Shown: positions 491 to 55,655 of the stretch, one piece after another
Numbering within the stretch: position 1 is the stretch's first letter
Layout: every line of letters begins with the position of its first letter
NCBI GenBank assembly: GCA_964446835.1
Contig: CAYUQT010000007.1
Span: 9,176 to 73,175 of the forward strand
Origin: an uncultured Planctomycetales bacterium
GTDB taxonomy: Bacteria; Planctomycetota; Phycisphaerae; UBA1845; JAFGLZ01
Length of the DNA stretch: 64,000 nucleotides
Reading direction: 5' to 3'
Made by a program: the position numbers and the translations under genes
Notes under the pieces: model-generated
Seen by the model: the letters and a program-made list of their open reading frames with translations, nothing else
Databases searched by the model: none
Told to the model about the DNA's origin: nothing

Positions 491-1660
491 CTACGAGATC
501 GTCTGCCATGTGGCACCGGCCTCGGGGCGGGTCGTATAGACGATTGCCGGTTTCTCCCACTGTCGATCGTAGCGATCACGAATGGCTTCGGTCAGCGCCG
601 CGGCCACCCGCTCGTCGGCCAGGGCGATCGCGCAGCCTCCGAAGCCACCTCCGGTCATCCGGGCCCCGTGGACGCCCGGCACCGATCGAGCGACATCCAC
701 CAGTGCGTCCAATTCGCTGCACGAGACCTCGTAGTCGTCGCGCAGACTCACGTGCGAGTCACACATGAGTTTGCCGAAGGTGCGAACGTCACCGCCCTTG
801 AGGGCCTTGGCGGCCTGCACGGTTCGCTCGATCTCGGTCACGACGTGACGACAGCGTCGATGGACCATTTCCGGCATTCCGGCGGCGTACTTCGAGAGCA
901 TGGCCGTCGTGACATCCCGTAGGGATCGTACTGCCGGTTCGGAGGCCTGGATGAGCTTCAGACCGGCCTGGCATTGCTGTTGGCGCACGGGATACTCGCT
1001 GCGGCCGATTTCGTGTTTGACCTGTGTATCCATCACGACAAGGACGACGCCGGGCAGATCGGCCGGAATATGTTCGTAGTGCTGGGTGCGACAATCGAGC
1101 AGGAGGGCGTGTCCTTTTTGTCCGAGGACGCAGATGAACTGATCCATGATGCCGCAGGGTGAACCGGCGTATCGGTGTTCGGCCTGGCGGCAGAGCAGGG
1201 CCATGGGAACGGGGTCCATTCGTGCCCCGGAGATTGCCAGGAGGGCATGGGCGGTGCCCACTTCGAGGGCCGCCGAACTGCTGACGCCCCCCCCGAGCGG
1301 GACCTCGCTGTCGATCAGGAGATCGGCGCCGGACAGCGCGACACCGTCGCTTTGGAGCAATGCTGCGACGCCCTTGACGTAGTTGGCCCACTTGGGCTCG
1401 CCCGGGGCGATGGGCTGGTCGAGATCGAACTCCACTGTTTGCTGGTAGGCGGTGGTGTGGACGCGGATCCGCCGATCGGAACGTCGAGCCACTCCCAGAT
1501 GGAGGGCCTGGGTCATCGCGATGGGCAAGACGAACCCGTCGTTGTAATCGGTGTGCTCGCCGATCAGGTTGACGCGTCCCGGCGAGCGTACGAGGACCGA
1601 AGGCACCCCACCGGCAAATAACCTTGAGAATTTCCCTGAGAATTCTTCGATTTTGAACAC
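491..1660 (-). CDS. galK: galactokinase
   Basis: Contains the galactokinase signature RSPGRVNLIGEHTDYNDGFVLP and the GHMP kinase motif (PLGGGVSSSAALEV). The likely start is GTG at 1658-1660, preceded by GGAG (protein VFKIEEFSGKF...); the ORF-track ATG at 1774 would add about 38 non-conserved residues. Confidence 0.85.
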   Translation of the reverse strand: MFKIEEFSGKFSRLFAGGVPSVLVRSPGRVNLIGEHTDYNDGFVLPIAMTQALHLGVARRSDRRIRVHTTAYQQTVEFDLDQPIAPGEPKWANYVKGVAALLQSDGVALSGADLLIDSEVPLGGGVSSSAALEVGTAHALLAISGARMDPVPMALLCRQAEHRYAGSPCGIMDQFICVLGQKGHALLLDCRTQHYEHIPADLPGVVLVVMDTQVKHEIGRSEYPVRQQQCQAGLKLIQASEPAVRSLRDVTTAMLSKYAAGMPEMVHRRCRHVVTEIERTVQAAKALKGGDVRTFGKLMCDSHVSLRDDYEVSCSELDALVDVARSVPGVHGARMTGGGFGGCAIALADERVAAALTEAIRDRYDRQWEKPAIVYTTRPEAGATWQTIS

Positions 1661-1847
1661 CGTCACTCCCTCTGTGGCGACGCCGATGGGACAGGGTCCT
1701 CTGCGCCGGGGACCCCACCCCCGATTCGCGGCACCAATGTCCCGCGGGGAGGGGACGGTGTCAAGGCGTGCCATAACCTTGACTCAAGGCCTCCGTTCGG
1801 GTACTAATCTTCGGAATCGAGTCTGGGAACCGTAGGTCGAATCGCGG

Positions 1848-2342
1848 GTGGCGGGTATGAACCTGGTACGATATCGAACTGTGGTCGGTGTAGCGGCATT
1901 GTTCTCTCTGATCACTGTGGTCGGCTGTAATGAGCCGATGTGGAACTCCGACCAGAAGAAGCTGGTTCCACAACAACAGTTGACCAAGAGCGACATTCCG
2001 GTGCCTGAGGGCTTTGATCTGGATGAGCCTGCCTCTGAAGACCGGTCGGGTGGGGGGACGCGGCTGATCCGGTATGTGTTTTACGGCAAGGCCGACGGCC
2101 AGATGGTCCGCACCTTCTACCGTGAACAGATGCCCGTTGAAAAGTGGAATCAGACCGGCGACGAGATGCGCTCCGGTCAGTATGTGATGCAGTTTGAAAA
2201 GGGTTCGGAGGTCTGCGAGGTGACGATCTCGGGAGCCGGCCGGGGACTGATGACCAAGACCAAACTGCGCATCGAGGTGTTGCCTGGAAAGGGGCGCGCC
2301 CGATCCCCTAAGTCTACCTCTGAAGACAAGATGAGCCCATGA
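1848..2342 (+). CDS. lipoprotein of unknown function
   Basis: Signal peptide with lipobox (AALFSLITVVGC). 164 aa. The stop overlaps the start of the next gene (ATGA). Confidence 0.55.
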   Translation: MAGMNLVRYRTVVGVAALFSLITVVGCNEPMWNSDQKKLVPQQQLTKSDIPVPEGFDLDEPASEDRSGGGTRLIRYVFYGKADGQMVRTFYREQMPVEKWNQTGDEMRSGQYVMQFEKGSEVCEVTISGAGRGLMTKTKLRIEVLPGKGRARSPKSTSEDKMSP

Positions 2343-3088
2343 AAGCGGAACGCAGACAACAGCTTCGGACGAATGAACTGGCCCAGACCCTGGCAGATCT
2401 GGTTGAGTATTGTCGCAACAACAGCGGTGTGATTCTCGGGGTGGCGGCGGCGGTGGTGCTGGTGTTGTCCCTGGGTGCTTACTGGTATGCGACGCAGGTT
2501 TCGGCGCGAACCCAGGGGTGGGAGGACTTTGCCGGCAGCCAGATGGCCGGTGAGGGTGGAACAGGCGGGTTCAGCCGGGACAAGATCCGCGAAGTGGCCG
2601 TGAAGTACAAGTCTCAACCCGTGCTGGCTTCCATGGCGTGGTTGCGATATGCCGATGCCTCTGTCATGGAGTTGCGATCCGGCAGGATTCCGCCCGCAGA
2701 GGTCCAAAAAGCGTTGTCGGATGCGGTCAGCGCCTACAACTCTGTCTTGAACCACTATCCCGAGCAGACGATCTCGGTGGCAGGAGCGAGGTTCGGCCTG
2801 GCCAACCTGGCGGAGATGCAAGGGAGATTTGGGGAAGCCAAGACTCAGTATGAGGCGGTTGTGAGCGACAGCCGTTTTGCGGAAATGCCTTACAAATCGC
2901 TAGCGGTCGAGGCGATCAATCGCCTTGCCGTCATCAGCCAGCCGGTTGTTTTTGTGGATACTCCGACGACCGAACCGTCGAGTCGCCCCGTGGCTCTGTC
3001 CCCCGTGTCACGGCCAGCAGTATCCTCGGCGCCGGCCGGGGTTGGCGGAACGACACGAGCGGCCGCTGTTCCGAATGCCGGCAAGTAG
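2339..3088 (+). CDS. membrane-anchored TPR-like/YfgM-like protein
   Basis: Single N-terminal TM (ILGVAAAVVLVLSLGAYWY) followed by a helical repeat region and a Pro/Ser/Ala-rich C-terminus. Translationally coupled to the upstream lipoprotein gene. Confidence 0.5.
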   Translation: MKAERRQQLRTNELAQTLADLVEYCRNNSGVILGVAAAVVLVLSLGAYWYATQVSARTQGWEDFAGSQMAGEGGTGGFSRDKIREVAVKYKSQPVLASMAWLRYADASVMELRSGRIPPAEVQKALSDAVSAYNSVLNHYPEQTISVAGARFGLANLAEMQGRFGEAKTQYEAVVSDSRFAEMPYKSLAVEAINRLAVISQPVVFVDTPTTEPSSRPVALSPVSRPAVSSAPAGVGGTTRAAAVPNAGK

Positions 3089-5074: not shown

Positions 5075-7294
5075 ATGAGCCTTTTAAGCCAGAAAACATC
5101 GCCAGAAGGGTTCAAGTCACCCGCACACCTGTCAAAGGGTAATCGCCTTAGTCGTTGCCTCGTAAGTCGATCGGTTTTTCCAGCACATTGGTCTCGTTCT
5201 GTGCCGACAGCGACCGGGACGCTGAAGGCCCCCTATCTTCGGGCACCTGGGGTGGAGCGACCGCTGTATCCCTTGATGCCGTTGGACCGTCTTGTGGGCG
5301 GTTTTGAGAGGCCTTTGCAGTGGGACCCTTCAGTTTTCTCCGTTGACTGCCTCCCGGTTGACCGAAATAATCTAACAGGAAGTGGCCGTGTCGCCGGGGA
5401 TTCCGGCGCTACTGTATCGGCCGATGTCTTCAGGGGCGGCCTTGAGGTCGTCTCTGAGAATCGTTGTGAGGAGCGGGTTGAGTCCCCAGGGACAGGGGTC
5501 TGCTCCTGCGGGTCTGACGTCCGTTCCGAGGGGGAAGGGGCACCGACTTGTGGGGTGTGGGTGGCCCCATCCGGTCAGGTTCCGCTCTTTTCGGCGGAGG
5601 CGTTGGACGTGGCGCGATATACACTGGAGATGATCGAACAACTGGCCAGGCAGTTGTTCATGTCTCCCCCGAGGCTTCGTATCCAGCAGATCGAGGGTGC
5701 GGAGTATCTCGTCAACATCATTGAGCCTTCGCGAGCTTATCCCTACGAACTCATCGTCTTTCACATTACGCGTTACCGTGCGGCGAATCCGGCGGGTGGT
5801 GACGAGCTCCTCCCCGGCGACTGTCTGATCGGCGACCTTGTCCAACTGATCGAGGAACTGAGCGGATCGGCGGATCTTCGCATCAACCAGATGGGACAGA
5901 TGTGCTGGTCGATCGAGCAGCTTTGCCGCCGATTCAGCATCTCGCCGAAGACGATCAAGCGTTGGCACCGCAAGGGACTGGTTTCCTATCGCGCCCTCGA
6001 CGACGAGGGGCGTCGGCGAAAGGTGTTCCCCGAGCGGGCCCTGCGTCGGTTCATCGGCAAGAACGAGCGTCTGGTCAAGCGGGCGTCTGCGTTTACGAAG
6101 CTGACGGATCAGGAGCGGGAATCGATCGTTTCGACGGCCCGCGCCATGGTTCAGCAGGGCGCAACGAAGGTCAGCGATGTTTCCGAGCGAATCGGCCGGC
6201 AGATGGGGCGTTCGGCCGAGACGGTTCGCTACGTTCTCCGTCGATACGAGGAACACCATCCGGACGAGCGGATCTTCGGGGTTCAGGTCCAGCCACTGGC
6301 CGATGACGATCAGGTTGCCATCTACCGGGGATACCGTGAAGGCGAGCACGTCGCCTCTCTGGCCGAGAGATTCGGGCGGACGCCATCGAGCATCTACCGC
6401 ATCGTTTCGGACATGAGGGCGAAGGACCTGCTCGATCGCTCCATCGAGTATATTCCGAGCGATGATTTTGAGGCGGCCGACGCGGATCAGATGATTCTGG
6501 GGGAGGCGTCGAGCGAGATACCGGCCCGTTCGAGTGCTTCGAACCGCACGTCGCCCCGCGACGACGCCCCGGTCTATCTGCGTGACCTCTATCGGCTGCC
6601 CCTGTTGGCCGACGACGAGGAGTCGCGGCTCTTTCGGCGATACAACTACCTCAAGTACAAGGCGTCAAAGCGTGTGGCCACCATCGATCGCGATCGGCCT
6701 CGCAGCGCCGATCTGGACGAAGTGGAAGGTCTTCTGTCACAGGCCGAGGGGATCAAGAATCGGCTCATCCAGGCCAATCTGCGTCTGGTCGTCAGCATTG
6801 CCAAGCGTCACGTTCGTCGCGGCGAAGACCTGTTCACTGTGATCAGCGACGGAAACCTTTCTCTGATGAAGGCCGTCGAGAAGTTCGACTATACGCGAGG
6901 CAACAAGTTCAGCACCTACGCCTCATGGGCGATCATCAAGAACTACGCCCGCACGGTTCCGGAAGAACGCTACCAACTCACCCGCTATCAGACGGGGCAC
7001 GAGGATCAGCTTTCGATCGAGCCCGACCCTGTCGATCGCGTGTCGGCCATGGATCGCAGCATGGAGGGCGTCCGCGAGGCGCTGGACCATGTTCTCGCGA
7101 CGCTGCCCGCACGAGAGCGGAGCATCGTCACGCAGCACTACGGGCTGACCCCCGACGGCAAGGCCCATACCCTCGAGCAGATTGGCGAGTGGCTGGGTGT
7201 CTCGAAAGAGCGGGCGCGGCAGATCGAGCGCCGTGCCCTCAAGAGGCTGCGTGAGGCGTTAAGCCCCTCCATACTGGATGCGATTCTCACCTGA
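5075..7294 (+). CDS. RNA polymerase sigma-70 family factor (RpoD/group-1-like) with roughly 490-aa N-terminal extension
   Basis: The C-terminal 240 aa carry region 1.2 (APVYLRDLYRLPLL), region 2 (LIQANLRLVVSIAKRH...GNLSLMKAVEKFDYTRGNKFSTYASWAIIK), region 3 and region 4.2 (TLEQIGEWLGVSKERARQIERRALKRL). The true start is unclear; the ORF opens at 5075 but the first about 180 codons are of low coding quality. Confidence 0.8.
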   Translation: MSLLSQKTSPEGFKSPAHLSKGNRLSRCLVSRSVFPAHWSRSVPTATGTLKAPYLRAPGVERPLYPLMPLDRLVGGFERPLQWDPSVFSVDCLPVDRNNLTGSGRVAGDSGATVSADVFRGGLEVVSENRCEERVESPGTGVCSCGSDVRSEGEGAPTCGVWVAPSGQVPLFSAEALDVARYTLEMIEQLARQLFMSPPRLRIQQIEGAEYLVNIIEPSRAYPYELIVFHITRYRAANPAGGDELLPGDCLIGDLVQLIEELSGSADLRINQMGQMCWSIEQLCRRFSISPKTIKRWHRKGLVSYRALDDEGRRRKVFPERALRRFIGKNERLVKRASAFTKLTDQERESIVSTARAMVQQGATKVSDVSERIGRQMGRSAETVRYVLRRYEEHHPDERIFGVQVQPLADDDQVAIYRGYREGEHVASLAERFGRTPSSIYRIVSDMRAKDLLDRSIEYIPSDDFEAADADQMILGEASSEIPARSSASNRTSPRDDAPVYLRDLYRLPLLADDEESRLFRRYNYLKYKASKRVATIDRDRPRSADLDEVEGLLSQAEGIKNRLIQANLRLVVSIAKRHVRRGEDLFTVISDGNLSLMKAVEKFDYTRGNKFSTYASWAIIKNYARTVPEERYQLTRYQTGHEDQLSIEPDPVDRVSAMDRSMEGVREALDHVLATLPARERSIVTQHYGLTPDGKAHTLEQIGEWLGVSKERARQIERRALKRLREALSPSILDAILT

Positions 7295-11122: not shown

Positions 11123-11785
11123 ATGTCCGTGCGAAGAGGGCGAGGCGAGGTGTCGACATCCATGACGAGCACGGAATCAATCGCAGCGAAGCTCGATCCG
11201 GATTTCATCCGGTTGATGATCGAGGAATTGAGCGGTCAGAGAGGCAAGTCCAAGGCCGCGGACATGAGCGGCACCTGGGAGGGGCAGGCGGAACCGGAAG
11301 CGGAACCCCTCCCCGATCCGTTCGCTCCTGAGCCATCGTCCAAGTCGGAAGACATCGGCGACGCCATACTCGTGGAAGAGGAAAGTCCCGCGGGTCAAAC
11401 GCCGCTGTTCCCCGAGGTGGTTGTGGGAGATCGCAAGAAGGGATCGACCTCCCTGACGGGTCAAGAGGCCGTTGCCCCCGGCGGGCGTGTGAAGATAATC
11501 CTTCGTGTGGCGGAACCCGACCTGCCCGAGCGAACGGTGAGTCTGACGCGCAAGCCCATGACGATCGGGCGGGGACGAGACGCCGACATTGTGCTGAAGG
11601 ATGCCGGCGTCAGCCGTCATCATGCACAAGTCGAAGCCGGTGAAGACTGTATTCTCGTTCGTGACTTGCACAGCCGTAATGGAACGATGGTAAACGACCA
11701 TTCGATCCAGGAACACGAGGCCTTTCCGGGCGATTTCATTCGCATCGGCAGAACCATCATCCGGATTCATCAGACCAAAGACTAA
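11123..11785 (+). CDS. FHA-domain protein
   Basis: Disordered acidic/Pro-rich N-terminus followed by a C-terminal FHA domain (MTIGRGRDADIVLKDAGVSRHHAQV...SRNGTMVND). The stop is 10 nt before the next gene. Confidence 0.75.
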   Translation: MSVRRGRGEVSTSMTSTESIAAKLDPDFIRLMIEELSGQRGKSKAADMSGTWEGQAEPEAEPLPDPFAPEPSSKSEDIGDAILVEEESPAGQTPLFPEVVVGDRKKGSTSLTGQEAVAPGGRVKIILRVAEPDLPERTVSLTRKPMTIGRGRDADIVLKDAGVSRHHAQVEAGEDCILVRDLHSRNGTMVNDHSIQEHEAFPGDFIRIGRTIIRIHQTKD

Positions 11786-11795
11786 GGGAGACCTC

Positions 11796-13466
11796 ATGAG
11801 AAGCCGGATGAGTCGTTCCCCATGGCTGACAGCGGTACCGGTGGTCGTGGTATTCCTGTCTGCTTGCGTCGCGGCTTGTGCAGAGGACGCAGCCCCTACC
11901 TCGGCTCCGACCACGACGCAGGCGGCGACGTCGCGTCCCGCCGTTGTTCCTGCCGCAACTCCAAGGGTGTCGCACGATTTTCTGATGGGGCCCGTACCGT
12001 TCGCGATCTTCGCCGTCTGGTTGGCCGCATGCCTCTACTGTACGACCTGGGCGCAGCAGCACCTGTCGATGCCCGGTGAAAGAAAGGCCCTGATCAACTG
12101 GCTGTTGCTGCCGACGGGCCCCGTGGGTCTGGCGGTAGTCTGGTACATCGAGAAGAACCCCCGGCTTCGCGAGCAGGTCAGTGAGCTTCTGGGCAGGATC
12201 GTGCCTCATCGCGCCGCGAGCGTGCCCAAGGAGAAGGCCCGAACGGTCGAGCTGGTGCTGTGCAACTCGGACGGGACTCCGGTGGGATCGCTCGGTTCCC
12301 GCAAGGCCTTCGCGCACGATTCGCTGGAACTGGCGAAACGGATTATCCACGAGGCCCTCGATCGCCGGGCATCGGATGTTCTGATCGATCCGCGGAGCGG
12401 GGACATCCATCTGGTTCGCTACCGAATCGACGGCATTCTGCAAGAGGTGGCTCGGCTGCCAGCCGATGAGGGCGTGGCGGTCGTCAACTGCTTCAAGGTG
12501 GCGTCACGGTTGGACATCAGCGAGCGTCGCCGCGCACAGGACGGGGCGTTTCTGGCCAAGCTGGGTGACCGGGAGATCAAGCTCCGTTCGGCCACCGCCG
12601 GCACCCTGTACGGCGAGAAGATGGCGATCCGGATTTTCGACACTCAGGCGGGGCTAATCAGCCTCGACAACGTGGGGATGAACGACCACGAGCAGCAGCA
12701 GATCCGGCAGTTCGTGGAGCGCAGCGACGGGATGGTCCTTGTGGCCGGTCCGACCGGGAGCGGCAAGACGACGTCGATCTACGCCGCGCTGAACCTGCTG
12801 GCCGGGAAGGGCCGGAACATCGTGACGATCGAGCAGCCCATCGAATACCCCCTGCCCTATGCCAGCCAGACGGAGGTGAATCCCAAGGCGGGGATCACGT
12901 TTGCGGCCGGACTGAGATCCATGATGCGGCAGGATCCCGACGTGATTCTGGTGGGCGAGATTCGCGACCGTGAGACGGCCGAGACGGCGCTTCAGGCCTC
13001 GCAGACGGGGCACCTGGTTCTGTCGACGATCCACAGCAACGACGGGCTGACCGCCCTGGCGCGGCTGGTGGAATTCGGCATCGAGCCGTTCTTGATCTCG
13101 ACGAGTCTGACGGCAGTGCTCTCGCAGCGGCTGGTGCGCACGCTCTGTCCGCACTGCAAGGAAACGGCGAATATTTCGCAGAAGCTTCGGCGCGAGGGCG
13201 CCAAGAGGCAGATTGCCCTGGGCAAGGTGTACGTGGCCAGTGGCTGTGAGGAGTGCGAGGGCACAGGATACGTCGGTCGGACGGGCATCTTTGAGATTCT
13301 CCCGTTGAGCAAGGACATGGGCCAGCTCCTCACCCTTCGGCCCTCTCTGGGCACGATCCAGGCGCAGGCTCAGAAGGAGGGGCTGGTCACGATGCGTCAA
13401 CGGGGCATTGAGAAGGTTCTACAGGGTGTCACAACGGTGGACGAGGTTGTCCGCGTAACCACCTAG
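11796..13466 (+). CDS. GspE/PilB-family (type II secretion / type IV pilus) ATPase with N-terminal membrane anchor
   Basis: RBS AAGGGAG. Residues 1-120 carry a signal-peptide-like segment plus two further TM helices. They are followed by an N2E domain, Walker A (GPTGSGKTT), Asp box, Walker B, His box and the tetracysteine zinc motif (CPHC...CEEC). The canonical N1E domain is absent. Confidence 0.8.
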   Translation: MRSRMSRSPWLTAVPVVVVFLSACVAACAEDAAPTSAPTTTQAATSRPAVVPAATPRVSHDFLMGPVPFAIFAVWLAACLYCTTWAQQHLSMPGERKALINWLLLPTGPVGLAVVWYIEKNPRLREQVSELLGRIVPHRAASVPKEKARTVELVLCNSDGTPVGSLGSRKAFAHDSLELAKRIIHEALDRRASDVLIDPRSGDIHLVRYRIDGILQEVARLPADEGVAVVNCFKVASRLDISERRRAQDGAFLAKLGDREIKLRSATAGTLYGEKMAIRIFDTQAGLISLDNVGMNDHEQQQIRQFVERSDGMVLVAGPTGSGKTTSIYAALNLLAGKGRNIVTIEQPIEYPLPYASQTEVNPKAGITFAAGLRSMMRQDPDVILVGEIRDRETAETALQASQTGHLVLSTIHSNDGLTALARLVEFGIEPFLISTSLTAVLSQRLVRTLCPHCKETANISQKLRREGAKRQIALGKVYVASGCEECEGTGYVGRTGIFEILPLSKDMGQLLTLRPSLGTIQAQAQKEGLVTMRQRGIEKVLQGVTTVDEVVRVTT

Positions 13467-13477
13467 ACGGAGCGTCC

Positions 13478-13984
13478 ATGATTCTTCTCGGCGGAATATT
13501 GGTGGCTTCGTTCATGGCCTGGCAGATCCGGGTATACGGCACGTACCTGGCCCTTTGCGATGCGCTCGGACTGGTCGTGGGCGCCGGGGCGACCGTGGCG
13601 TTCGGGGCCTCGGTGGGAGATGTGATCCCGTGGACCCACCCGCTGAAGGGCACTGCCAGCGCGGCCGGCACCTTCGTGGTGGTCTGGATGATGTTTCGAT
13701 CGGTAACCCGGTCGTTCGCGGGGGGCCAGAATGTGGATTTCGGCAGGTCGTTGGACACTGTCGGAGGCGGGGCCTTTGCCTTTGTGGGGATCATGGTGTT
13801 CATCGGCACGACGTCGTTGATCGCATTGACCTCGGGTCGGCAGCTTCCTCAGCAGCAGATGCTGGCCGAACCCCTCCGGCAGGCGGCGTCGATTGGCCTG
13901 GGTGCCGCCCGTTTCGTTGCCTGGTTTGTCGGGAGCACGCAAGACCTTACCCTGGACGTCGTCTTGAAGCATCTGACGACGTAG
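13478..13984 (+). CDS. CvpA-family membrane protein
   Basis: Four predicted TM helices. The N-terminus (MILLGGILVASFMAWQ) is typical of the colicin V production CvpA family. It starts 12 nt after the ATPase gene. Confidence 0.55.
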   Translation: MILLGGILVASFMAWQIRVYGTYLALCDALGLVVGAGATVAFGASVGDVIPWTHPLKGTASAAGTFVVVWMMFRSVTRSFAGGQNVDFGRSLDTVGGGAFAFVGIMVFIGTTSLIALTSGRQLPQQQMLAEPLRQAASIGLGAARFVAWFVGSTQDLTLDVVLKHLTT

Positions 13985-21930: not shown

Positions 21931-23022
21931 CTAGTCACGAAACAGAGGGGAGTCGGCTCGGTCGCCCCGTCGCCGCGCGACGGCCCGATAGATGGCCAGG
22001 GCGTTCGGGATCGGGGTGTCGGGCTGGATGTTGTGGCACGGGCCGAGGATGTAGCCCCCGCCCTTGCCGACCTCGTCCATCAGGTGCTCGACCTCTTGTT
22101 CGACCTCGGCGGGGGTCGACCGCTGAAGCCCACCCTGGACGTCCACGCCGCCGTGCAGGACGATCCGGCCGGCGAACTCCTTCTTGAGGCTGTAGGGGTT
22201 CATGCCGACCGCCTGGGGCTGAATCGTCTGGAGGGCGTCCATCCCCACCTGAACGAACCGCGGGATGAGGGCCCGGCTCGATCCGCAGCAGTGGTGCGAG
22301 ACCTTGGCGCCGTAGCTGTGGACCATGTCGAAGAGTTCCTTCTTGCGCGGCGCGAAGAGATGATCGAAGGTGGCGCCCGAGATCAGGGGACCCCGTTGTG
22401 TGCCGAAGTCGTCGCCGCACAGGACCAGGTCGATGCGCCCCGCCGCGGCCTTGAGCGACCGTTCGATGTGCTCCATATAGAATCGATGCCGCCGCTCGAC
22501 GATGTAGAGGTAGACGGGATCTTCCATGGCGATGTCGAGCAGCACCTGTTCAACGCCGCGACCGAACGCCACACCGTTGATGAAGTCCTGCACGCCGAAG
22601 CTCCCCACGGCGATCGCCTTATCCGGATGCTTGCGGCAGAGCACGTGAATGGCGTCGTAATCGTATGCGTCGGCGCTCGGCCATGGGTGAGCCTTCGCCT
22701 CATCGAGGGTGGTCCACCTGGCGAACGGCAGGACGGTCGGTTCGGCGTACTCGCCGTATTCGTTGGGCATCGGCTTGCGAACCACGCCCCAGATATCCGT
22801 CACGGCCCCGTCGGGGTACGTGGGCAGTTTCGGACCGATGTACGGCGGATTGACGAACCGCAGGTCGGTGCCGAGGGCGTCCATCAGCGCATCGTCGGTG
22901 GAGACACCGAAATGATCGAGCAACGCCCGATGGATCTCCGGCGTGGCGAAGTAGTCGCAGGGAGTGCAATCCGGCTGAGTGTGGGCCAGTGCGGTCTCAA
23001 TGCGCGTCCGTGAGCTCATCAT
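21931..23022 (-). CDS. uroporphyrinogen decarboxylase (URO-D) family protein, MtaA/CmuA-like methyltransferase
   Basis: Start MMSSRTRIE overlaps the upstream stop (ATGA). URO-D fold motifs are present. The ORF-track N-terminal 175 aa are Arg-rich antisense junk. Confidence 0.7.
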   Translation of the reverse strand: MMSSRTRIETALAHTQPDCTPCDYFATPEIHRALLDHFGVSTDDALMDALGTDLRFVNPPYIGPKLPTYPDGAVTDIWGVVRKPMPNEYGEYAEPTVLPFARWTTLDEAKAHPWPSADAYDYDAIHVLCRKHPDKAIAVGSFGVQDFINGVAFGRGVEQVLLDIAMEDPVYLYIVERRHRFYMEHIERSLKAAAGRIDLVLCGDDFGTQRGPLISGATFDHLFAPRKKELFDMVHSYGAKVSHHCCGSSRALIPRFVQVGMDALQTIQPQAVGMNPYSLKKEFAGRIVLHGGVDVQGGLQRSTPAEVEQEVEHLMDEVGKGGGYILGPCHNIQPDTPIPNALAIYRAVARRRGDRADSPLFRD

Positions 23023-24191
23023 GCATAGACTCCATATTCCCGCACCGCCTCCCACATGGCCATGATGTTTTCCGGCGGTACGTCGGCCTGAATGTTGTGA
23101 ACCGTGTTGAAGATGAATCCGCCGCCCGGGGCAAGGTCTTCGATCCGGCGCCGAACTTCCTGCCGGACGTCGGCGGGCGTGCCGCGAGGCAGGATCCGCT
23201 GTGTATCCACGCCTCCTCCCCAGAAGGTCAGGTCTTTTCCGAATCGTCGTTTCAGTTCGCGTGTGTCCATGCCGGCGGCACTGACCTGAACGGGGTTCAG
23301 GATATCGATGCCCGATTCGATCAGGTCGGGCAGGATGGAGGTCACGGCGCCGCAGCAGTGATAGAAGATCTTGACCGGCACCCGGGCATGTTTCCGGATG
23401 AATGAGAAGAGTCGAGTGTGTCGGGGTTTGATCAGTTCGCGATAGAGGTCCGGCGCGACGAGAACGCGATCCTGCGTGCAGAGATCGTCGGCCTCGCTGA
23501 CGACCATGACGTTCTCGCCGACGAGTTCGAGAACGCGGGCCCAATACTTCATCTTGATTTCGCAGACGATGTCCAGAAGCGCCTCGGCCAGCGGCCGGTC
23601 GGCGAGCATGTCGCAGTAGTAGTTCTCAAAGCCGCGCATCCAGAGCGCCATTTCGAAGATGCCTGGGGCGTTTCGACCCAGGACGTAGGCGACCTGACGA
23701 CGATTCATCAATTCGTCGGCCTTGGCGGCGATACCCTCGTAGCGCCCCGGGTCCAACGGATCCGGAAAGCGAACGGCGGCCAGATCCTTCACGCCGGTGA
23801 TGTTGGCCAGCGGATGCACGCGCATGTCGTAATAGAAACCGCCGTCCCTGGGCATCCACCACTCGATGCCCCACTCGTCGAGGTACTTGTGGTAGGCCTC
23901 TTCGGTCCATGTTCTGGGACGGTGGGCGTTCGGCGGCCCGGGATTGATTCCGCAAACATCGACCTCAAGACGCTGCTTGACGTCGTCGTGAACCCTGGCG
24001 AGCTGCTGGAAGGTGTCCTCGATCTCGATCTCGACCTCGGGCAGCCCGAGATAAGTTCTCAGGCGGCGGTAGGCCTTCTCGTGAATACCGGTCAGAATCG
24101 TGCCGCCCAGATCGAACGGCACGCGATCGGGCTCCTGATGATTCAGACTGGCCTCGACGCGACGACGGCTCGTCCAGGAATGTGTCGACAT
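23019..24191 (-). CDS. uroporphyrinogen decarboxylase (URO-D) family protein, MtaA/CmuA-like methyltransferase
   Basis: Start MSTHSWTSRR is preceded by GGAGAG. It shares the fold of the downstream paralogue (VPFDLGGTILTG, NVMVVSEADD, ILNPVQ). Confidence 0.7.
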   Translation of the reverse strand: MSTHSWTSRRRVEASLNHQEPDRVPFDLGGTILTGIHEKAYRRLRTYLGLPEVEIEIEDTFQQLARVHDDVKQRLEVDVCGINPGPPNAHRPRTWTEEAYHKYLDEWGIEWWMPRDGGFYYDMRVHPLANITGVKDLAAVRFPDPLDPGRYEGIAAKADELMNRRQVAYVLGRNAPGIFEMALWMRGFENYYCDMLADRPLAEALLDIVCEIKMKYWARVLELVGENVMVVSEADDLCTQDRVLVAPDLYRELIKPRHTRLFSFIRKHARVPVKIFYHCCGAVTSILPDLIESGIDILNPVQVSAAGMDTRELKRRFGKDLTFWGGGVDTQRILPRGTPADVRQEVRRRIEDLAPGGGFIFNTVHNIQADVPPENIMAMWEAVREYGVYA

Positions 24192-24336
24192 GAGCGTCTC
24201 TCCATACGTTCCATTGGAGCGATTCGACGACGCCACAGTGTACAGACTGAGTGAAGGGCGGGCCAGATGGAAGAAATCCCACCGGCCGGGCGTCCAAACC
24301 TTCGGCAGCGTCGAGGCAGAAGACAATACTATGATT

Positions 24337-51572: not shown

Positions 51573-54500
51573 TCACTGCGCTCGAGTTCTGCGCGGGACC
51601 GGCGGCCGGCCACCTGCCACAAGCCACGACACCGACCAGATCGTCATGAAGGTCCCGCCCGCCGCCGCCAGGGCCCAGAGGACCAACTGGTTCTGGTTCG
51701 CCAGTCCTGAGGACACGATTGCACCGGGATAGTCTGCCGTGTCGGTTGACGGGGGTGCCGAGGCGATCGCCAGTCGTTTGCGGCAATCGGTGATCTGTTT
51801 ATCGATGTCGGCCAGGGCGCGATCGGCCGCCTTGTCGCGTTCGGCCGCCTCGCCGTATGCCGCCTGGCGACGTTCCCAGGCCGCCTGTCCGAGTTGCTCG
51901 GTCAGAAGCTGGTCATCCCGCTTGAGGAGTTCCTCGATGGCCTGATCTCTCGCGGCGACCGCCTCGTTGGCCTGGCGTCTCAGGTCGGCCAACTGTTTCT
52001 CACGGCGTTCGATCACCTGATCGCCGGCCTGCCGTTCGAGCCCCTGGGTGATTTCCTTCTGTCGGAATGAGATGCGGCTGCGCAACTGCGTGACCTGTTT
52101 CAGGCAGGCTTCCAGTCGTTCGCTGCTCATCGGGATGATTTCGGCGCCGGCGTTGGCGAAATCGCGACGGGCGGTGGTCATCTCTTCGGCCTGTTTCTTC
52201 AGGGCATCCTGGAGCACGATCCGCCGTGTCATATCGTCGCCGCCCGATTGTGCGATCGCCTTGATCTGGGCATTGATCGACACGATCGGCCGACCGAGTT
52301 GATCGAGTAGATCCGAGAGGTTCTTTTCGGCCTGTTGCTGTTCGGTGACCAGGTTGATCGGCTCGGCGGCGTTGGGTTGCCCGCGAAGCTTGTTCAACTG
52401 GGCCTCCCACGACCGGGCGGCCTCGACGAGGGCTTTCCGGCAGGTGGCCAGTTCGGATCGGATCTGATTGAGTGCCGTCTGGACATCTTCGGCCGAGCCG
52501 TTGCCCAGGCGCGAGGCGACCTCTCGATCGAACGCATCCACCTTTTCGGCCAAGGTGCCCAGCGGCCCGCGACCGACCTCGAGCCCATCGACGAGGAACC
52601 CGCGAAGCTGCTGCTCGCGGAGTCGGAGTTGTTCGGTGTCCTGCTGAAGCTGGGTATCGGCAGCCGTTGCGGTCCGGAGGGCCTCGGCATCGACTTCCAC
52701 GCTCGGACGGCTCGATGAGAACTGGGCGAACTTCTGCTCGGCCGCCGCGCATTGCTGCCGCAAGGTCTGCCAGTTGGCGAGGATCTCCGAGCGCTGCCGG
52801 ATGAGCTGATCGATCGGCTGAGCCGAGGGCTGTGACTGTGCGGCCGTCTTCAGTTCGGCCACTTCGGCGGCGCTGCGCTTCTTGGCCTGTTCTCTGCGGG
52901 CCTTCTCGGCCATCAGGTCTTTGATCTCTCCCGACGACGTTGGCGTCACGGAGCGGTTATTGATGTGGTCTTTGAGGGCCTTGCCCAATGCGTCGATGAT
53001 CGCCTGGGTGCGCTTGGGGGCGGAGGTGATCGCCCGAATTCGAATCTGCACCTCTTCGGGGATGGCTCTGATCTCGATGTCGGAGCCGGGTCCGAGCATG
53101 GCGCCGAGGTCATCGGCCGAGAGGTCGAGGTCCAGTGACGAGGCGGCTGCGGTGATCACGGTGGGGGATCTCAAGGCCTCGACATAGCGAGCCAAAGCCT
53201 GAGCGGGAGCCTCCTCCGTGGTTACGTGGAGGAAGCCCTGAACCTCATGGCGGATACCGATGGCCCACACGGCGATCAGGGCTGCGGCCCCGGCCAGAAT
53301 CCCGGAGGCCGTCAGGGCCCGGCGAAGGTTGAACCCCCCTGTCTCGATAATCAGGGGCTGTCCGCCGAGTCCCTGTTGTGCCTGCGCCGCGAGTTCTTCG
53401 AGCGATTCGACCTCTTCGGCAAGCCGTTGCTCCCGTCCGGTCAGGTCGGCCGCCTGCCGGGCGAGTTCTTCTCGCCGCTGGTCGAGGACCTGGCGTTCTT
53501 CGGCCACCTGGTGCGTGACGTCCTGGCGCTCCTGTTCGAGGAGGCGGCGTTCGTTCTGAAGGCGCGACATCTCCTGTGCCAGGCGCTTCTGCTCGTCAAC
53601 AACGCTGCGCTGGGCCTCGGTGAGCCCCGATTCGGTCGACACGGCCTTGGCAAGCCGCTGTTCGAATTCCTGCCGGGCGGCGTTCAGTTCTTCGTACTGC
53701 TTTCGGACCTTGGCCTCGGCCGCCTGGCACTGCGTTTCGACCTGGCGGCGGGTTTGCGTGAGTTTGTCCTCCTCGGACGTCATGGCCTTCCGCTGCTGCT
53801 CGATCCGGTCGGCCTGCTCGCGAAGCTCCTGGAGCCCGGGCTCCAGAGACCCCTGCAGGGCCTCCAGCTCGGCGGATCGCATGTCGAGTTCCGCCGTCCG
53901 CTCGTCGAGCCGGCGTCGCAGTGCCTCCAGCTCGCCGCGGGTGGCGGATGCCTCTTCACGATGAGCGGCGATTTCGGACTGCTGTCGCGAGACCTCCGCC
54001 GCTTTCTTCGCAAGGTCCTCTTCATGGCGCGTCAGTTCATCCAACTGGCGTTCCAGCTCGCGTTCATTCTCCAGTCGAGCGGCCTCGGCCTCACCGGCCT
54101 GCCGTCGGAAGGTCTCTTGTTCCGCCCGAAGCCCGCTCTCCAACTCTGCCAGTTCCCGCTCGCGGGTTTCCAGCGCATCTTCCCGCTGAGTCAGCGAGGT
54201 TTCACGAGACTGAAGGCTGCTTCGCTGGGCCTCGATCAGTTCGCGTTGCCGGCTCAGCTCGGCCTCAACACGATCCAGATGCTGCTCGCGGGCCGCCAGT
54301 TCGTCGGAACGGACATCGAAGGTCGCCTGCATTTTCAGAATGCGATCTCGCTCTTCGGCAAAGTCGGCATCCTTGCGAGCCAGTTCGGCCTCCTGACGGT
54401 CGCACTCGGAGCGAATCTCGGCCACCCGCCGTTCGTCGGCCTCCAACTGGATGCGGCGTTCGTCGATATCCTGTTGTTCGGTGTCCATTTCGGCGCGGCG

Positions 54501-55655
54501 CCGGGCCTGTTCGTGTGCGGCCTCGTGCTCCGACTCTTCGAGGGCCGACTGCCGGGCCTCCACCTCTCGCTGACGGATGGACAGCTGCTGCCCACGCTCG
54601 GTGACCTGGGTGAGTTGTGTTTCGAGCTGTTCCAGCTTCCTGCGAAGATCGGCGCGGTGTTCTTCGCTCTCGAGTTCGATCCGCTCGCGGGTTTCATTGA
54701 CCCTGGCGATTTCCGCTTCGAGCTGGGCCTGGCGTTCCGAGAGGCTCTCGCGCTGCGCGGTCAGAGCGGCTCTCTGTTTCTCGATGCTCTCGGCGCGGTC
54801 GGTCAACGCCGCCTGTTCGGCCGTCAGGCTGCCCCGCTGTTCATCAAGCTGTTCTCGCTGGGCGGCCAGGTGATCTCTCTCGCTCTGAAGGGAAAGCTGT
54901 TCCCGTTCGAGGTCTTCCCTACGGCGGTTCAACTCGGATACGGCCACCTCGATGCCGGTCTGGTCCTGGGAGAGTTGCGCCGCCCTGGCACTGGTCTGCT
55001 GTTCCTGGCGCAACAGCTCCGCCCGGTATTTTTCCAGTTCGTCCCGCTCGGTCTGCTGCGTGGCGGTGCGACGGTCGAGGTCGGTTCGGCCCTCTTCGAC
55101 GCGGCGCTGCAGCTCGGCGAGATCAGCCCTCTCCTGCCGGAGTTGATCTCGCAGGCCTTGGACCTGCTGGCGCTCGGCGTCCAGTTCCGCCTGTTGCTGT
55201 CGATAGAACTCCGCCAGCTTGTCCACCTGTGTGGAGGTCTGTTTTGCTTCAAAGGACTCGTTGAGGCGTTGAACCTCGGAGCGGGTTTCGGCCAGCCGCT
55301 GCCGGGCCTCGTGGGTCTGGCGGCGCTGATCCTCGATGGCGGCCTCTCGTTGATCGATATCGAGCTGAAGGGCATCAAGCTGTGCTTCACGGGTGGCCAG
55401 TTTCGCGCGTGTCTCTTCGAGTTCGCGCCGCTGGGCGTCCAGCCTGGCCTGCAACTGAGTCAGACGCGCCTCCAGATCGGCGGTGTCTCGTTCGCCCGCA
55501 TCGCCGTTGGATATCCGCCGGGCGACCGTCTCGTCCTCGATGCGAGGGCGGTCGCTTGCAGACAGAGAGGGCGTGCTACCTTCTTTGATGAGTTCGTCTG
55601 CCGAGTTGGTCTTGCTGTTCTGACCGTTGGCCTGTTTGCCTCTGCCCAGTCTCAT
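51573..55655 (-). CDS. giant coiled-coil membrane protein with Wzz/GumC (polysaccharide co-polymerase)-like TM-periplasmic coiled-coil-TM C-terminal module
   Basis: 1360 aa. Residues 1-790 are a nearly continuous heptad-repeat Glu/Arg/Gln/Ala-rich coiled coil. TM1 is at about 795-815. A roughly 480-aa second helical domain follows, TM2 is at about 1325-1347, and the tail is a short basic PVPRRTRAQ. Confidence 0.6.
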   Translation of the reverse strand: MRLGRGKQANGQNSKTNSADELIKEGSTPSLSASDRPRIEDETVARRISNGDAGERDTADLEARLTQLQARLDAQRRELEETRAKLATREAQLDALQLDIDQREAAIEDQRRQTHEARQRLAETRSEVQRLNESFEAKQTSTQVDKLAEFYRQQQAELDAERQQVQGLRDQLRQERADLAELQRRVEEGRTDLDRRTATQQTERDELEKYRAELLRQEQQTSARAAQLSQDQTGIEVAVSELNRRREDLEREQLSLQSERDHLAAQREQLDEQRGSLTAEQAALTDRAESIEKQRAALTAQRESLSERQAQLEAEIARVNETRERIELESEEHRADLRRKLEQLETQLTQVTERGQQLSIRQREVEARQSALEESEHEAAHEQARRRAEMDTEQQDIDERRIQLEADERRVAEIRSECDRQEAELARKDADFAEERDRILKMQATFDVRSDELAAREQHLDRVEAELSRQRELIEAQRSSLQSRETSLTQREDALETRERELAELESGLRAEQETFRRQAGEAEAARLENERELERQLDELTRHEEDLAKKAAEVSRQQSEIAAHREEASATRGELEALRRRLDERTAELDMRSAELEALQGSLEPGLQELREQADRIEQQRKAMTSEEDKLTQTRRQVETQCQAAEAKVRKQYEELNAARQEFEQRLAKAVSTESGLTEAQRSVVDEQKRLAQEMSRLQNERRLLEQERQDVTHQVAEERQVLDQRREELARQAADLTGREQRLAEEVESLEELAAQAQQGLGGQPLIIETGGFNLRRALTASGILAGAAALIAVWAIGIRHEVQGFLHVTTEEAPAQALARYVEALRSPTVITAAASSLDLDLSADDLGAMLGPGSDIEIRAIPEEVQIRIRAITSAPKRTQAIIDALGKALKDHINNRSVTPTSSGEIKDLMAEKARREQAKKRSAAEVAELKTAAQSQPSAQPIDQLIRQRSEILANWQTLRQQCAAAEQKFAQFSSSRPSVEVDAEALRTATAADTQLQQDTEQLRLREQQLRGFLVDGLEVGRGPLGTLAEKVDAFDREVASRLGNGSAEDVQTALNQIRSELATCRKALVEAARSWEAQLNKLRGQPNAAEPINLVTEQQQAEKNLSDLLDQLGRPIVSINAQIKAIAQSGGDDMTRRIVLQDALKKQAEEMTTARRDFANAGAEIIPMSSERLEACLKQVTQLRSRISFRQKEITQGLERQAGDQVIERREKQLADLRRQANEAVAARDQAIEELLKRDDQLLTEQLGQAAWERRQAAYGEAAERDKAADRALADIDKQITDCRKRLAIASAPPSTDTADYPGAIVSSGLANQNQLVLWALAAAGGTFMTIWSVSWLVAGGRPPVPRRTRAQ

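Follow-up and report, generated by a model that had tools for sequence, protein, structure and literature searches.

A 64-kb window of a contig from an uncultured Planctomycetales bacterium (CAYUQT010000007.1) carries three consecutive genes encoding a forkhead-associated (FHA) domain protein, an ATPase of the GspE/PilB type and a small CvpA-like membrane protein. We found that this ATPase retains the full N2 domain, catalytic core and zinc motif of its superfamily, with a membrane anchor of its own in the place of the soluble N1/MshEN docking domain, and that the constant unit across related loci is the ATPase gene together with the CvpA-like gene. We propose that the operon encodes an anchored hexameric motor of the PilB/GspE type that is partnered in the membrane by the CvpA-like protein, a reading that we hold to be evenly poised between right and wrong. 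All coordinates are positions in the window, by which we mean the whole 64-kb stretch analyzed, and all three genes lie on the + strand.

The ATPase is, at its core, a typical member of the T2SSE superfamily. The Pfam T2SSE model (PF00437) matched residues 179 to 553 with an E-value of 3e-117 (391.7 bits against a cut-off of 24.9), and the completeness of the catalytic core, which an earlier note on this DNA had read from the sequence, was borne out in an alignment of 77 relatives. In that alignment the Walker A residues G318, P319, T320, G321, G323 and K324 and the four cysteines of the zinc motif are invariant, and the Asp box/Walker B (D380 to D391) and the His box (T404 to H413) are invariant or near-invariant, the His box being invariant in all 77. 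Sequence searches against solved structures matched GspE, PilF and PilB to residues 178 to 555, the GspE structure 4pht scoring an E-value of 3e-94 over that range in phmmer. An AlphaFold model of the ATPase, built on the 77 relatives, has a mean predicted local distance difference test score (pLDDT) of 86, and Foldseek aligned it with PilF (5oiu) at a target-normalised TM-score of 0.90. This closeness favors a more conventional explanation, namely that the protein is an ordinary paralogue of extension or secretion ATPases, served by a PilC/GspF platform, pilins and a secretin whose genes lie elsewhere in the genome, with the anchor replacing N1 docking to GspL/PilM and the CvpA-like protein being peripheral. 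A core that is 37 to 42% identical to PilB, PilF and GspE, with TM-scores up to 0.90, is what such a paralogue would show; we nevertheless consider this explanation somewhat unlikely, for reasons of gene context given below.

The resemblance does not reach N-terminally past the N2 domain. The NCBIfam GspE model (TIGR02533) scored 435.1 bits against a cut-off of 630.25, aligning over profile positions 111 to 486 only, and the PilB model (TIGR02538) scored 419 bits against 675.65; both match the ATPase only from the N2 domain on, and models of the TadA family gave only about 47 bits. Profile searches of residues 1 to 178 returned no Pfam family, including PF05157 (T2SSE_N/MshEN), so that the absence of an N1E/MshEN docking domain suggested in the earlier note was upheld, and residues 1 to 177 matched no solved structure. 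Because its N-terminal domain, its score against the curated models and its gene context all fail, this member of the T2SSE superfamily is neither a GspE proper nor a PilB proper.

What occupies the N terminus instead is hydrophobic. The ATPase has hydropathy peaks at residues 10 to 29, 62 to 86 and 98 to 118, and it had been suggested that a signal-peptide-like segment and two further helices anchor the protein directly in the membrane. The two further segments, which we call TM-A and TM-B, aligned in every member of a 26-relative and a 77-relative set; their residues W75, G108 and P109 reach at least 90% conservation, and AlphaFold drew the two segments as a straight antiparallel hairpin with pLDDT near 90 (helices 66 to 89 and 94 to 120). 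The first segment, H1, proved to be clade-specific. It is preceded by three arginines and ends in ACA|E, it is modeled with low confidence, and it is strongly hydrophobic in only 14 of the 77 relatives, which make up the window's closest clade and one distant branch (H1-like segments were aligned in P0001-P0009 and in the P0079 branch). Thus, the anchor itself stood up to comparison, but not its description as a plain three-helix structure, which is also excluded by the parity of membrane crossings discussed below.

Given that the case depends on the N terminus, we considered whether the anchor could be an annotation artefact, in which case this would be a normal cytoplasmic GspE whose true start is either Met64 or a codon past the hydrophobic segments. 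The G+C content at third codon positions (GC3) of codons 1 to 63 (11796-11984) is 0.62, compared with 0.82 to 0.86 in the rest of the gene, which leaves some doubt about the start codon, and residues 1 to 55 have low AlphaFold confidence; GC2 of the same codons is high, reflecting their Ala/Pro/Thr-rich composition. However, TM-A and TM-B are conserved as protein sequence in every one of the 77 relatives and have a pLDDT of about 90, which is not what a misread start would produce, and a start at Met64 would still retain both conserved segments. No relative has a methionine at the position equivalent to residue 64, and a Shine-Dalgarno-like motif and 10-nucleotide (nt) spacing favor the start at 11796. 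The ATPase also starts 8 to 10 nt past the FHA stop codon, or overlapping it, in five diverged relatives, and at least five such relatives keep the N-terminal extension as an open, signal-peptide-like stretch; five open stretches of 50 to 117 codons at 62% GC have an estimated chance probability of about 1e-4. We therefore rejected a cytoplasmic GspE with a miscalled start, since the segments are conserved and both the spacing and the relatives back the upstream start, and we consider the artefact extremely improbable. Because the two segments are conserved throughout and confidently modeled, the anchor is a genuine part of a conserved protein.

The orientation of this anchor can be approached through the relatives, whose extensions ahead of TM-A differ widely. 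In two of them (P0291 and P0298) TM-A is preceded by a textbook signal peptide and then a hydrophilic stretch of roughly 170 to 200 amino acids (aa), and a third (P0357) carries an FHA domain, a transmembrane helix (TM0), about 215 low-complexity residues, three transmembrane helices and the ATPase in one polypeptide of 975 aa. Lysines plus arginines are sparse over the 15 residues that precede TM-A (0.56 on average) and more frequent in the 11-residue loop between the segments (2.3) and over the 20 residues that follow TM-B (3.6). Because of these signal peptides, exported domains, FHA-fusion architecture and Lys/Arg counts, we infer that the stretch before TM-A is periplasmic, and that the loop and the ATPase are cytoplasmic. 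By analogy with P0291, P0298 and P0357, the low-complexity linker at residues 30 to 63 of the window protein would also lie in the periplasm. With three spanning helices the ATPase would end up on the outer side of the membrane, outside the cell, and a plain three-helix anchor therefore cannot be right for the window protein. If the N-terminal tail is periplasmic and the ATPase cytoplasmic, it follows that only one of TM-A and TM-B crosses the membrane in proteins of the two-segment type, including that of the window. Relatives with three full helices after the N-terminal tail fit the same orientation. TM-B, with its Gly-Pro center, may be re-entrant or interfacial rather than spanning, a placement that comes solely from this parity argument.

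The second half of the proposal concerns the gene downstream. Among 75 informative loci, defined as those with at least 650 nt of sequence downstream of the ATPase, a hidden Markov model (HMM) search of six-frame open reading frames (ORFs) placed a CvpA-like gene directly downstream of the ATPase in every one; all but two of these loci are labeled Planctomycetota. The two genes are separated by a median of 4 to 5 nt and in several cases overlap, by 4 or 8 nt, a spacing that suggests translational coupling. The adjacency holds across 39 to 70% identity and changing flanks. In one of the 75 loci (L039 5875-7257) a frameshift or an assembly error cuts the ATPase ORF about 270 nt short of where it should stop, and the CvpA-like gene beside it is intact. 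As to the identity of the downstream protein, which had been described as a four-helix member of the CvpA family, PF02674 was matched at an E-value of 0.01 or better (best 2e-10) by 39 of the 43 proteins scanned from this gene position, the window protein among them, but the window copy by itself is below threshold. It has four hydrophobic stretches in its sequence, which a single-sequence AlphaFold model rendered as four helices with low confidence (mean pLDDT 54). Precomputed Pfam annotation records Colicin_V on the downstream small membrane protein in L004 and L006 and nothing in the rest, searches of solved structures with the CvpA-like protein or its profile gave nothing meaningful, and a homologue search with the window protein returned only the identical sequence.

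These context data bear directly on the ordinary-paralogue explanation introduced above. A canonical planctomycete PilB (P0104) has an MshEN domain and belongs to a full pilus cluster that also encodes PilM, a secretin and pilins, and directly downstream of its gene lies a T2SSF gene that overlaps the PilB stop codon. The CvpA-like gene holds, beside the anchored ATPase, the same position that T2SSF holds beside this PilB. The invariable CvpA-like adjacency in 75 of 75 loci, with its short gaps and overlaps, its persistence through deep divergence and its indifference to changing flanks, argues against a merely peripheral role for the CvpA-like protein, as does the absence of T2SSF within 8 to 10 kb of the module in eight annotated loci and in the 64-kb window. 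In the other direction, planctomycetes do possess complete pilus clusters, and pilT and pilB genes often lie apart from other pil genes. A sister clade whose anchor has three transmembrane helices also has, upstream of the ATPase in place of the FHA gene, a gene for a PilT/PilU-family ATPase (TIGR01420 scores of 398.6 and 388.5 bits in L006 and L087 against a cut-off of 319.1). The presence of PilT beside an anchored ATPase counts in favor of an ordinary paralogue; it also favors a tie between the family and pilus-type machinery over a wholly separate machine.

The lack of pilus and secretion genes near the module, which had been noted for the window, was confirmed and extended. We scanned 39 other window ORFs, which comprise nearly all non-overlapping ORFs of at least 200 aa and cover the shorter ones only in part, and found among them no T2SSF, pilin, secretin, prepilin peptidase, Ser/Thr kinase or PP2C. 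No prepilin N-terminal motif was present in any of the six frames of the window, the family HMM found no second T2SSE-family ORF there, and neither the window nor the eight annotated related loci contain gspF, gspL, gspM, a pseudopilin or a secretin. The negatives for platform, pilin and secretin genes apply to the 64-kb window and the loci rather than to whole genomes. Taken with the strict pairing of ATPase and CvpA-like genes, they raise the possibility that there is no filament machine at all, and that the two proteins form a new kind of engine that is independent of pilins and serves export or membrane maintenance, with peptides or envelope components as examples of what it might handle. 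The module often sits among ribosomal, tRNA-synthetase and secY housekeeping genes, the periplasmic N-terminal extensions vary widely, and Escherichia coli CvpA is defined by a defect in colicin V export, all of which would suit such an engine. Yet the characterised members of the GspE/PilB clade are all described as acting on pilin-like fibres through a T2SSF platform (PMC10790770), and PilT co-occurs in the sister clade. We regard a pilin-independent engine as quite unlikely.

Our preferred reading, an anchored motor with a CvpA-like membrane partner, can be put in mechanistic terms. The N-terminal tail before TM-A would be periplasmic, one of the two helices TM-A and TM-B would cross the membrane, and the Gly-Pro-centered TM-B would dip into the inner leaflet, so that the ATPase ring would be held directly beneath the membrane. 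The CvpA-like protein, in the gene position of T2SSF (PilC/GspF), would be the membrane partner of the ATPase; ATP-driven movements of the ring would be passed to this partner and would drive a pilin-like fibre, or a different envelope or secreted cargo, outward from the cytoplasmic membrane. The motor may be switched by a Ser/Thr kinase, acting through the FHA adaptor by phosphothreonine signaling. Our first guess for the cargo is a type IV pilus-like fibre, because the sister clade has the PilT retraction ATPase in the same operon. A stronger version, in which the module is a self-sufficient minimal inner-membrane machine with the CvpA fold replacing PilC/GspF and the anchor replacing GspL or PilM/N/O, strikes us as unlikely.

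To our knowledge, all characterised GspE/PilB motors are soluble, depend on partner proteins for recruitment to the membrane and work via a T2SSF platform. The conserved lineage described here alters both features, since the motor would be embedded in the membrane with a variable periplasmic extension and a CvpA-family protein, not a platform, is co-encoded with it. If the stronger version is correct, a mechanistic function could be assigned for the first time to the CvpA family, puzzling ever since its naming, namely that of membrane partner to an export motor, and a motor of the PilB type would be seen to operate with no T2SSF platform; the CvpA family would in any case gain a concrete, testable partner. 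The module would also add a second, independent example of a type IV filament-type ATPase controlled by FHA and a Ser/Thr kinase. Given that the envelopes and cell biology of Planctomycetota are unusual, it is reasonable to direct genetic work at an envelope motor specific to this phylum. An anchored ATPase with a link to CvpA would surprise specialists in pili and secretion, and everything in the proposal beyond the anatomy is drawn from gene order.

Several observations weigh against the anchored-motor proposal. The partnership of the ATPase and the CvpA-like protein is suggested by gene order only, and the window's CvpA-like protein scores 18.4 bits (E-value 2e-3) against the PF02674 cut-off of 29.3. 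CvpA-like proteins are without the large cytoplasmic domains by which PilC/GspF are thought to engage the ATPase. The straight hairpin modeled by AlphaFold, combined with an exported N-terminal tail, would place the ATPase outside the cell, and the low GC3 of the first 63 codons described above casts some doubt on the upstream start. The gene downstream of the P0357 fusion is not CvpA-like; it encodes a soluble protein rich in alpha-helix. In a phylogeny of the ATPase core, used to test a single origin of anchoring, bootstrap support is 91% for the canonical, 74% for the two-segment and 69% for the three-helix clade, but the tree fixes neither the branching among the three nor a sister relationship of the two anchored ones. 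Finally, no Ser/Thr column of the ATPase alignment cleanly separates FHA-linked (n = 25) from FHA-less (n = 49) proteins; the best columns in that comparison are residue 505 (Ser or Thr in 76% versus 14%) and residue 435.

The FHA protein is the variable member of the operon. The order of the three genes is kept in the window's closest clade, but an FHA gene lies directly upstream of the ATPase in only 24 of 74 loci, so that the three-gene module proposed in the earlier note reduces to a constant pair with an optional accessory found in roughly one third of lineages. The window's FHA protein meets the usual definition of its domain. Pfam FHA (PF00498) matched residues 147 to 209 with an E-value of 1e-17 (64.8 bits against a cut-off of 20.7), the GR, SxxH and NG residues are present, and the phosphothreonine-binding positions G149, R150, S164, R165, H167, N186, G187 and T188 are invariant in four orthologues. 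Its start is probably the ATG at 11162, giving 207 aa, because public gene calls and the N termini of homologues agree on it. At its N terminus the protein carries a conserved helix motif (LDxxFIxLMIEEL), which a linker rich in proline and acidic residues connects to the FHA domain at the C terminus. This is one of two architectures among the loci: the window clade, L005 and L047 share the conserved N-terminal helix, linker and C-terminal FHA domain, and the main Phycisphaerae family (L011, L018, L019, L022 and others) has an N-terminal FHA domain followed by a tail of 50 to 70 aa.

The P0357 fusion is relevant here as well. Its gene (L090 3318-6245, + strand) has a Pkinase gene (1315-3051, - strand) directly upstream in divergent orientation, and the fusion and its neighboring kinase together support a functional link between FHA protein and ATPase and control by a kinase. 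The suggestion that Ser/Thr phosphorylation regulates the ATPase thus gains one relative in its favor, but the lack of a discriminating Ser/Thr column tells against it. The earlier note had also held that FHA partners are no standard part of type II secretion or type IV pilus machinery. In class III CpaF (PMC12019362) and in KilF of the Myxococcus Kil system (PMC8460266), FHA is fused to a type IV filament ATPase, so that FHA coupling to these ATPases is already known and is not novel in kind; the setting of a GspE/PilB-type, anchored ATPase does differ. CpaF and KilF are soluble ATPases of the CpaF/TadA type with FHA fused directly, whereas the window ATPase is GspE/PilB-type and membrane-anchored, and in its family FHA is usually a separate small protein that most members lack; P0357, as a true FHA-ATPase fusion, resembles them. 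A comparable logic is cited in PMC8460266 for Fha1/TagH of the type VI secretion system, in which the FHA adaptor, with PpkA/PppA, reads a Ser/Thr kinase signal and switches on an envelope machine. The kinase beside P0357 recalls that arrangement, although the machine is unrelated and the window contains no kinase or phosphatase.

The module can be measured against the known systems it most resembles. With GspE/EpsE (TIGR02533; 4pht, 1p9r, 4ksr) the ATPase shares the N2 domain and C-terminal core, Walker A and B, the Asp and His boxes and the zinc motif, and GspE chains are 40 to 42% identical to it in Foldseek; unlike them, it is without N1E for GspL binding, is an integral membrane protein and has a CvpA-like gene downstream. 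PilB/PilF (TIGR02538; 5oiu, 5tsh, 5zfr) are the best structural matches, with target-normalised TM-scores of 0.87 to 0.90 and 37 to 40% identity. In contrast to these, the window ATPase has no MshEN/GSPII N-terminal domain and no T2SSF, PilM, secretin or pilins beside it; like them, the anchored sister clade is co-encoded with a true PilT. E. coli CvpA (PF02674) is a small membrane protein of about four helices, the number predicted with low confidence for the window copy, which is very divergent from it, and E. coli cvpA lies in the purF operon, without a secretion ATPase. Papers naming both CvpA and GspE are, by their titles, genome surveys with no apparent link between the two. In the titles and abstracts of the searchable literature, which leaves most subscription journals outside, we found neither a membrane-anchored PilB/GspE nor a link between CvpA and an ATPase.

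The anchored ATPase belongs to a real family of modest size that is confined almost wholly to Planctomycetota genomes. Database searches returned a large set of GspE-like proteins of 490 to 600 aa that are without PF05157 and cover 88 to 100% of the query, and the named members of this set come from metagenome-assembled genomes of Planctomycetota or Phycisphaerae. A scan of species-representative genomes with a pattern for the N-terminal region gave 179 confirmed matches; of the best 80 of these, 78 are labeled as Planctomycetota lineages and 2 only as "uncultured bacterium." An exhaustive HMMER search with the N-terminal profile gave 105 cluster representatives at an E-value of 1e-10 or better. 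Examples of genomes with the module that are complete or nearly so are CP070675.1, CP070782.1, OY970194.1 and OY970359.1. The searches also returned a group of proteins of about 1000 aa with a T2SSE ATPase domain (P0011, P0017, P0019, P0133-P0218), most of which have T2SSE_N as well; only a few are named, and these are mostly from Patescibacteria (Moranbacteria). They are nearly twice the normal length of PilB, and tandem ATPase domains are suspected from this length alone.

In the window, an ORF check recovered the three genes head to tail at the coordinates given in Table 1, as the earlier note had them. Ten nt separate the FHA stop (11785) from the ATPase ATG (11796), as had been reported; the gap between the ATPase stop (13466) and the CvpA-like ATG (13478) is 11 nt, correcting the 12 nt given before. 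Both downstream genes are preceded by Shine-Dalgarno-like motifs, and a scan for promoters and terminators yielded nothing exceeding background. The three genes form one real operon; their order is above chance because it recurs in dozens of diverged genomes with unrelated flanks.

Table 1. Features of the FHA, ATPase and CvpA-like genes, in window coordinates
Feature	Position	Strand	Details
FHA-domain protein	11123-11785	+	220 aa from ATG 11123; 207 aa from ATG 11162
FHA domain	11561-11749	+	residues 147-209 of the 220-aa form
Shine-Dalgarno-like GGGAG	11786-11790	+	5 nt before ATPase start; read from sequence
Membrane-anchored GspE/PilB-type ATPase	11796-13466	+	556 aa; public gene calls use the same start
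H1, signal-peptide-like or signal-anchor segment	11823-11882	+	residues 10-29; hydropathy 2.45
Ala/Pro/Thr-rich low-complexity linker	11883-11984	+	residues 30-63; predicted disordered, pLDDT <50
TM-A hydrophobic helix	11991-12053	+	residues 66-86; family motif GWxxLCLYC
Lys/Arg-rich loop	12054-12086	+	residues 87-97; putatively cytoplasmic
TM-B hydrophobic segment	12087-12149	+	residues 98-118; near-invariant G108-P109 at center
N2 domain and catalytic C-terminal domain	12330-13454	+	residues 179-553
Walker A GPTGSGKTT	12747-12773	+	residues 318-326; read from sequence
Tetracysteine zinc motif CPHC...CEEC	13146-13256	+	C451, C454, C484, C487
Shine-Dalgarno-like GGAG	13469-13472	+	5 nt before CvpA-like start; read from sequence
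Putative CvpA-family (Colicin_V, PF02674) small membrane protein	13478-13984	+	168 aa; four predicted hydrophobic helices, C-terminal tail of about 50 aa

Flanking genes vary from locus to locus and often have housekeeping functions (ribosomal proteins, tRNA synthetases, secY). In the window the neighbors are unrelated to the module and include proteins with 3-keto-disaccharide-hydrolase domains, a TrkA_N protein, and metabolic and glycosyltransferase genes. Genes of the URO-D family occur near the module both in the window (21931-24326, - strand) and in a 48%-identical relative (L005 2466-3428 and 6224-7165), which is probably a coincidence. Elsewhere in the window, a 1360-aa ORF (51573-55655, - strand) has no Pfam match and lies where the AT skew is -0.25 to -0.31, and a 739-aa protein (5075-7294, + strand), unusually long for a sigma-like factor, combines several helix-turn-helix domains with C-terminal sigma-70 regions 2 and 4.

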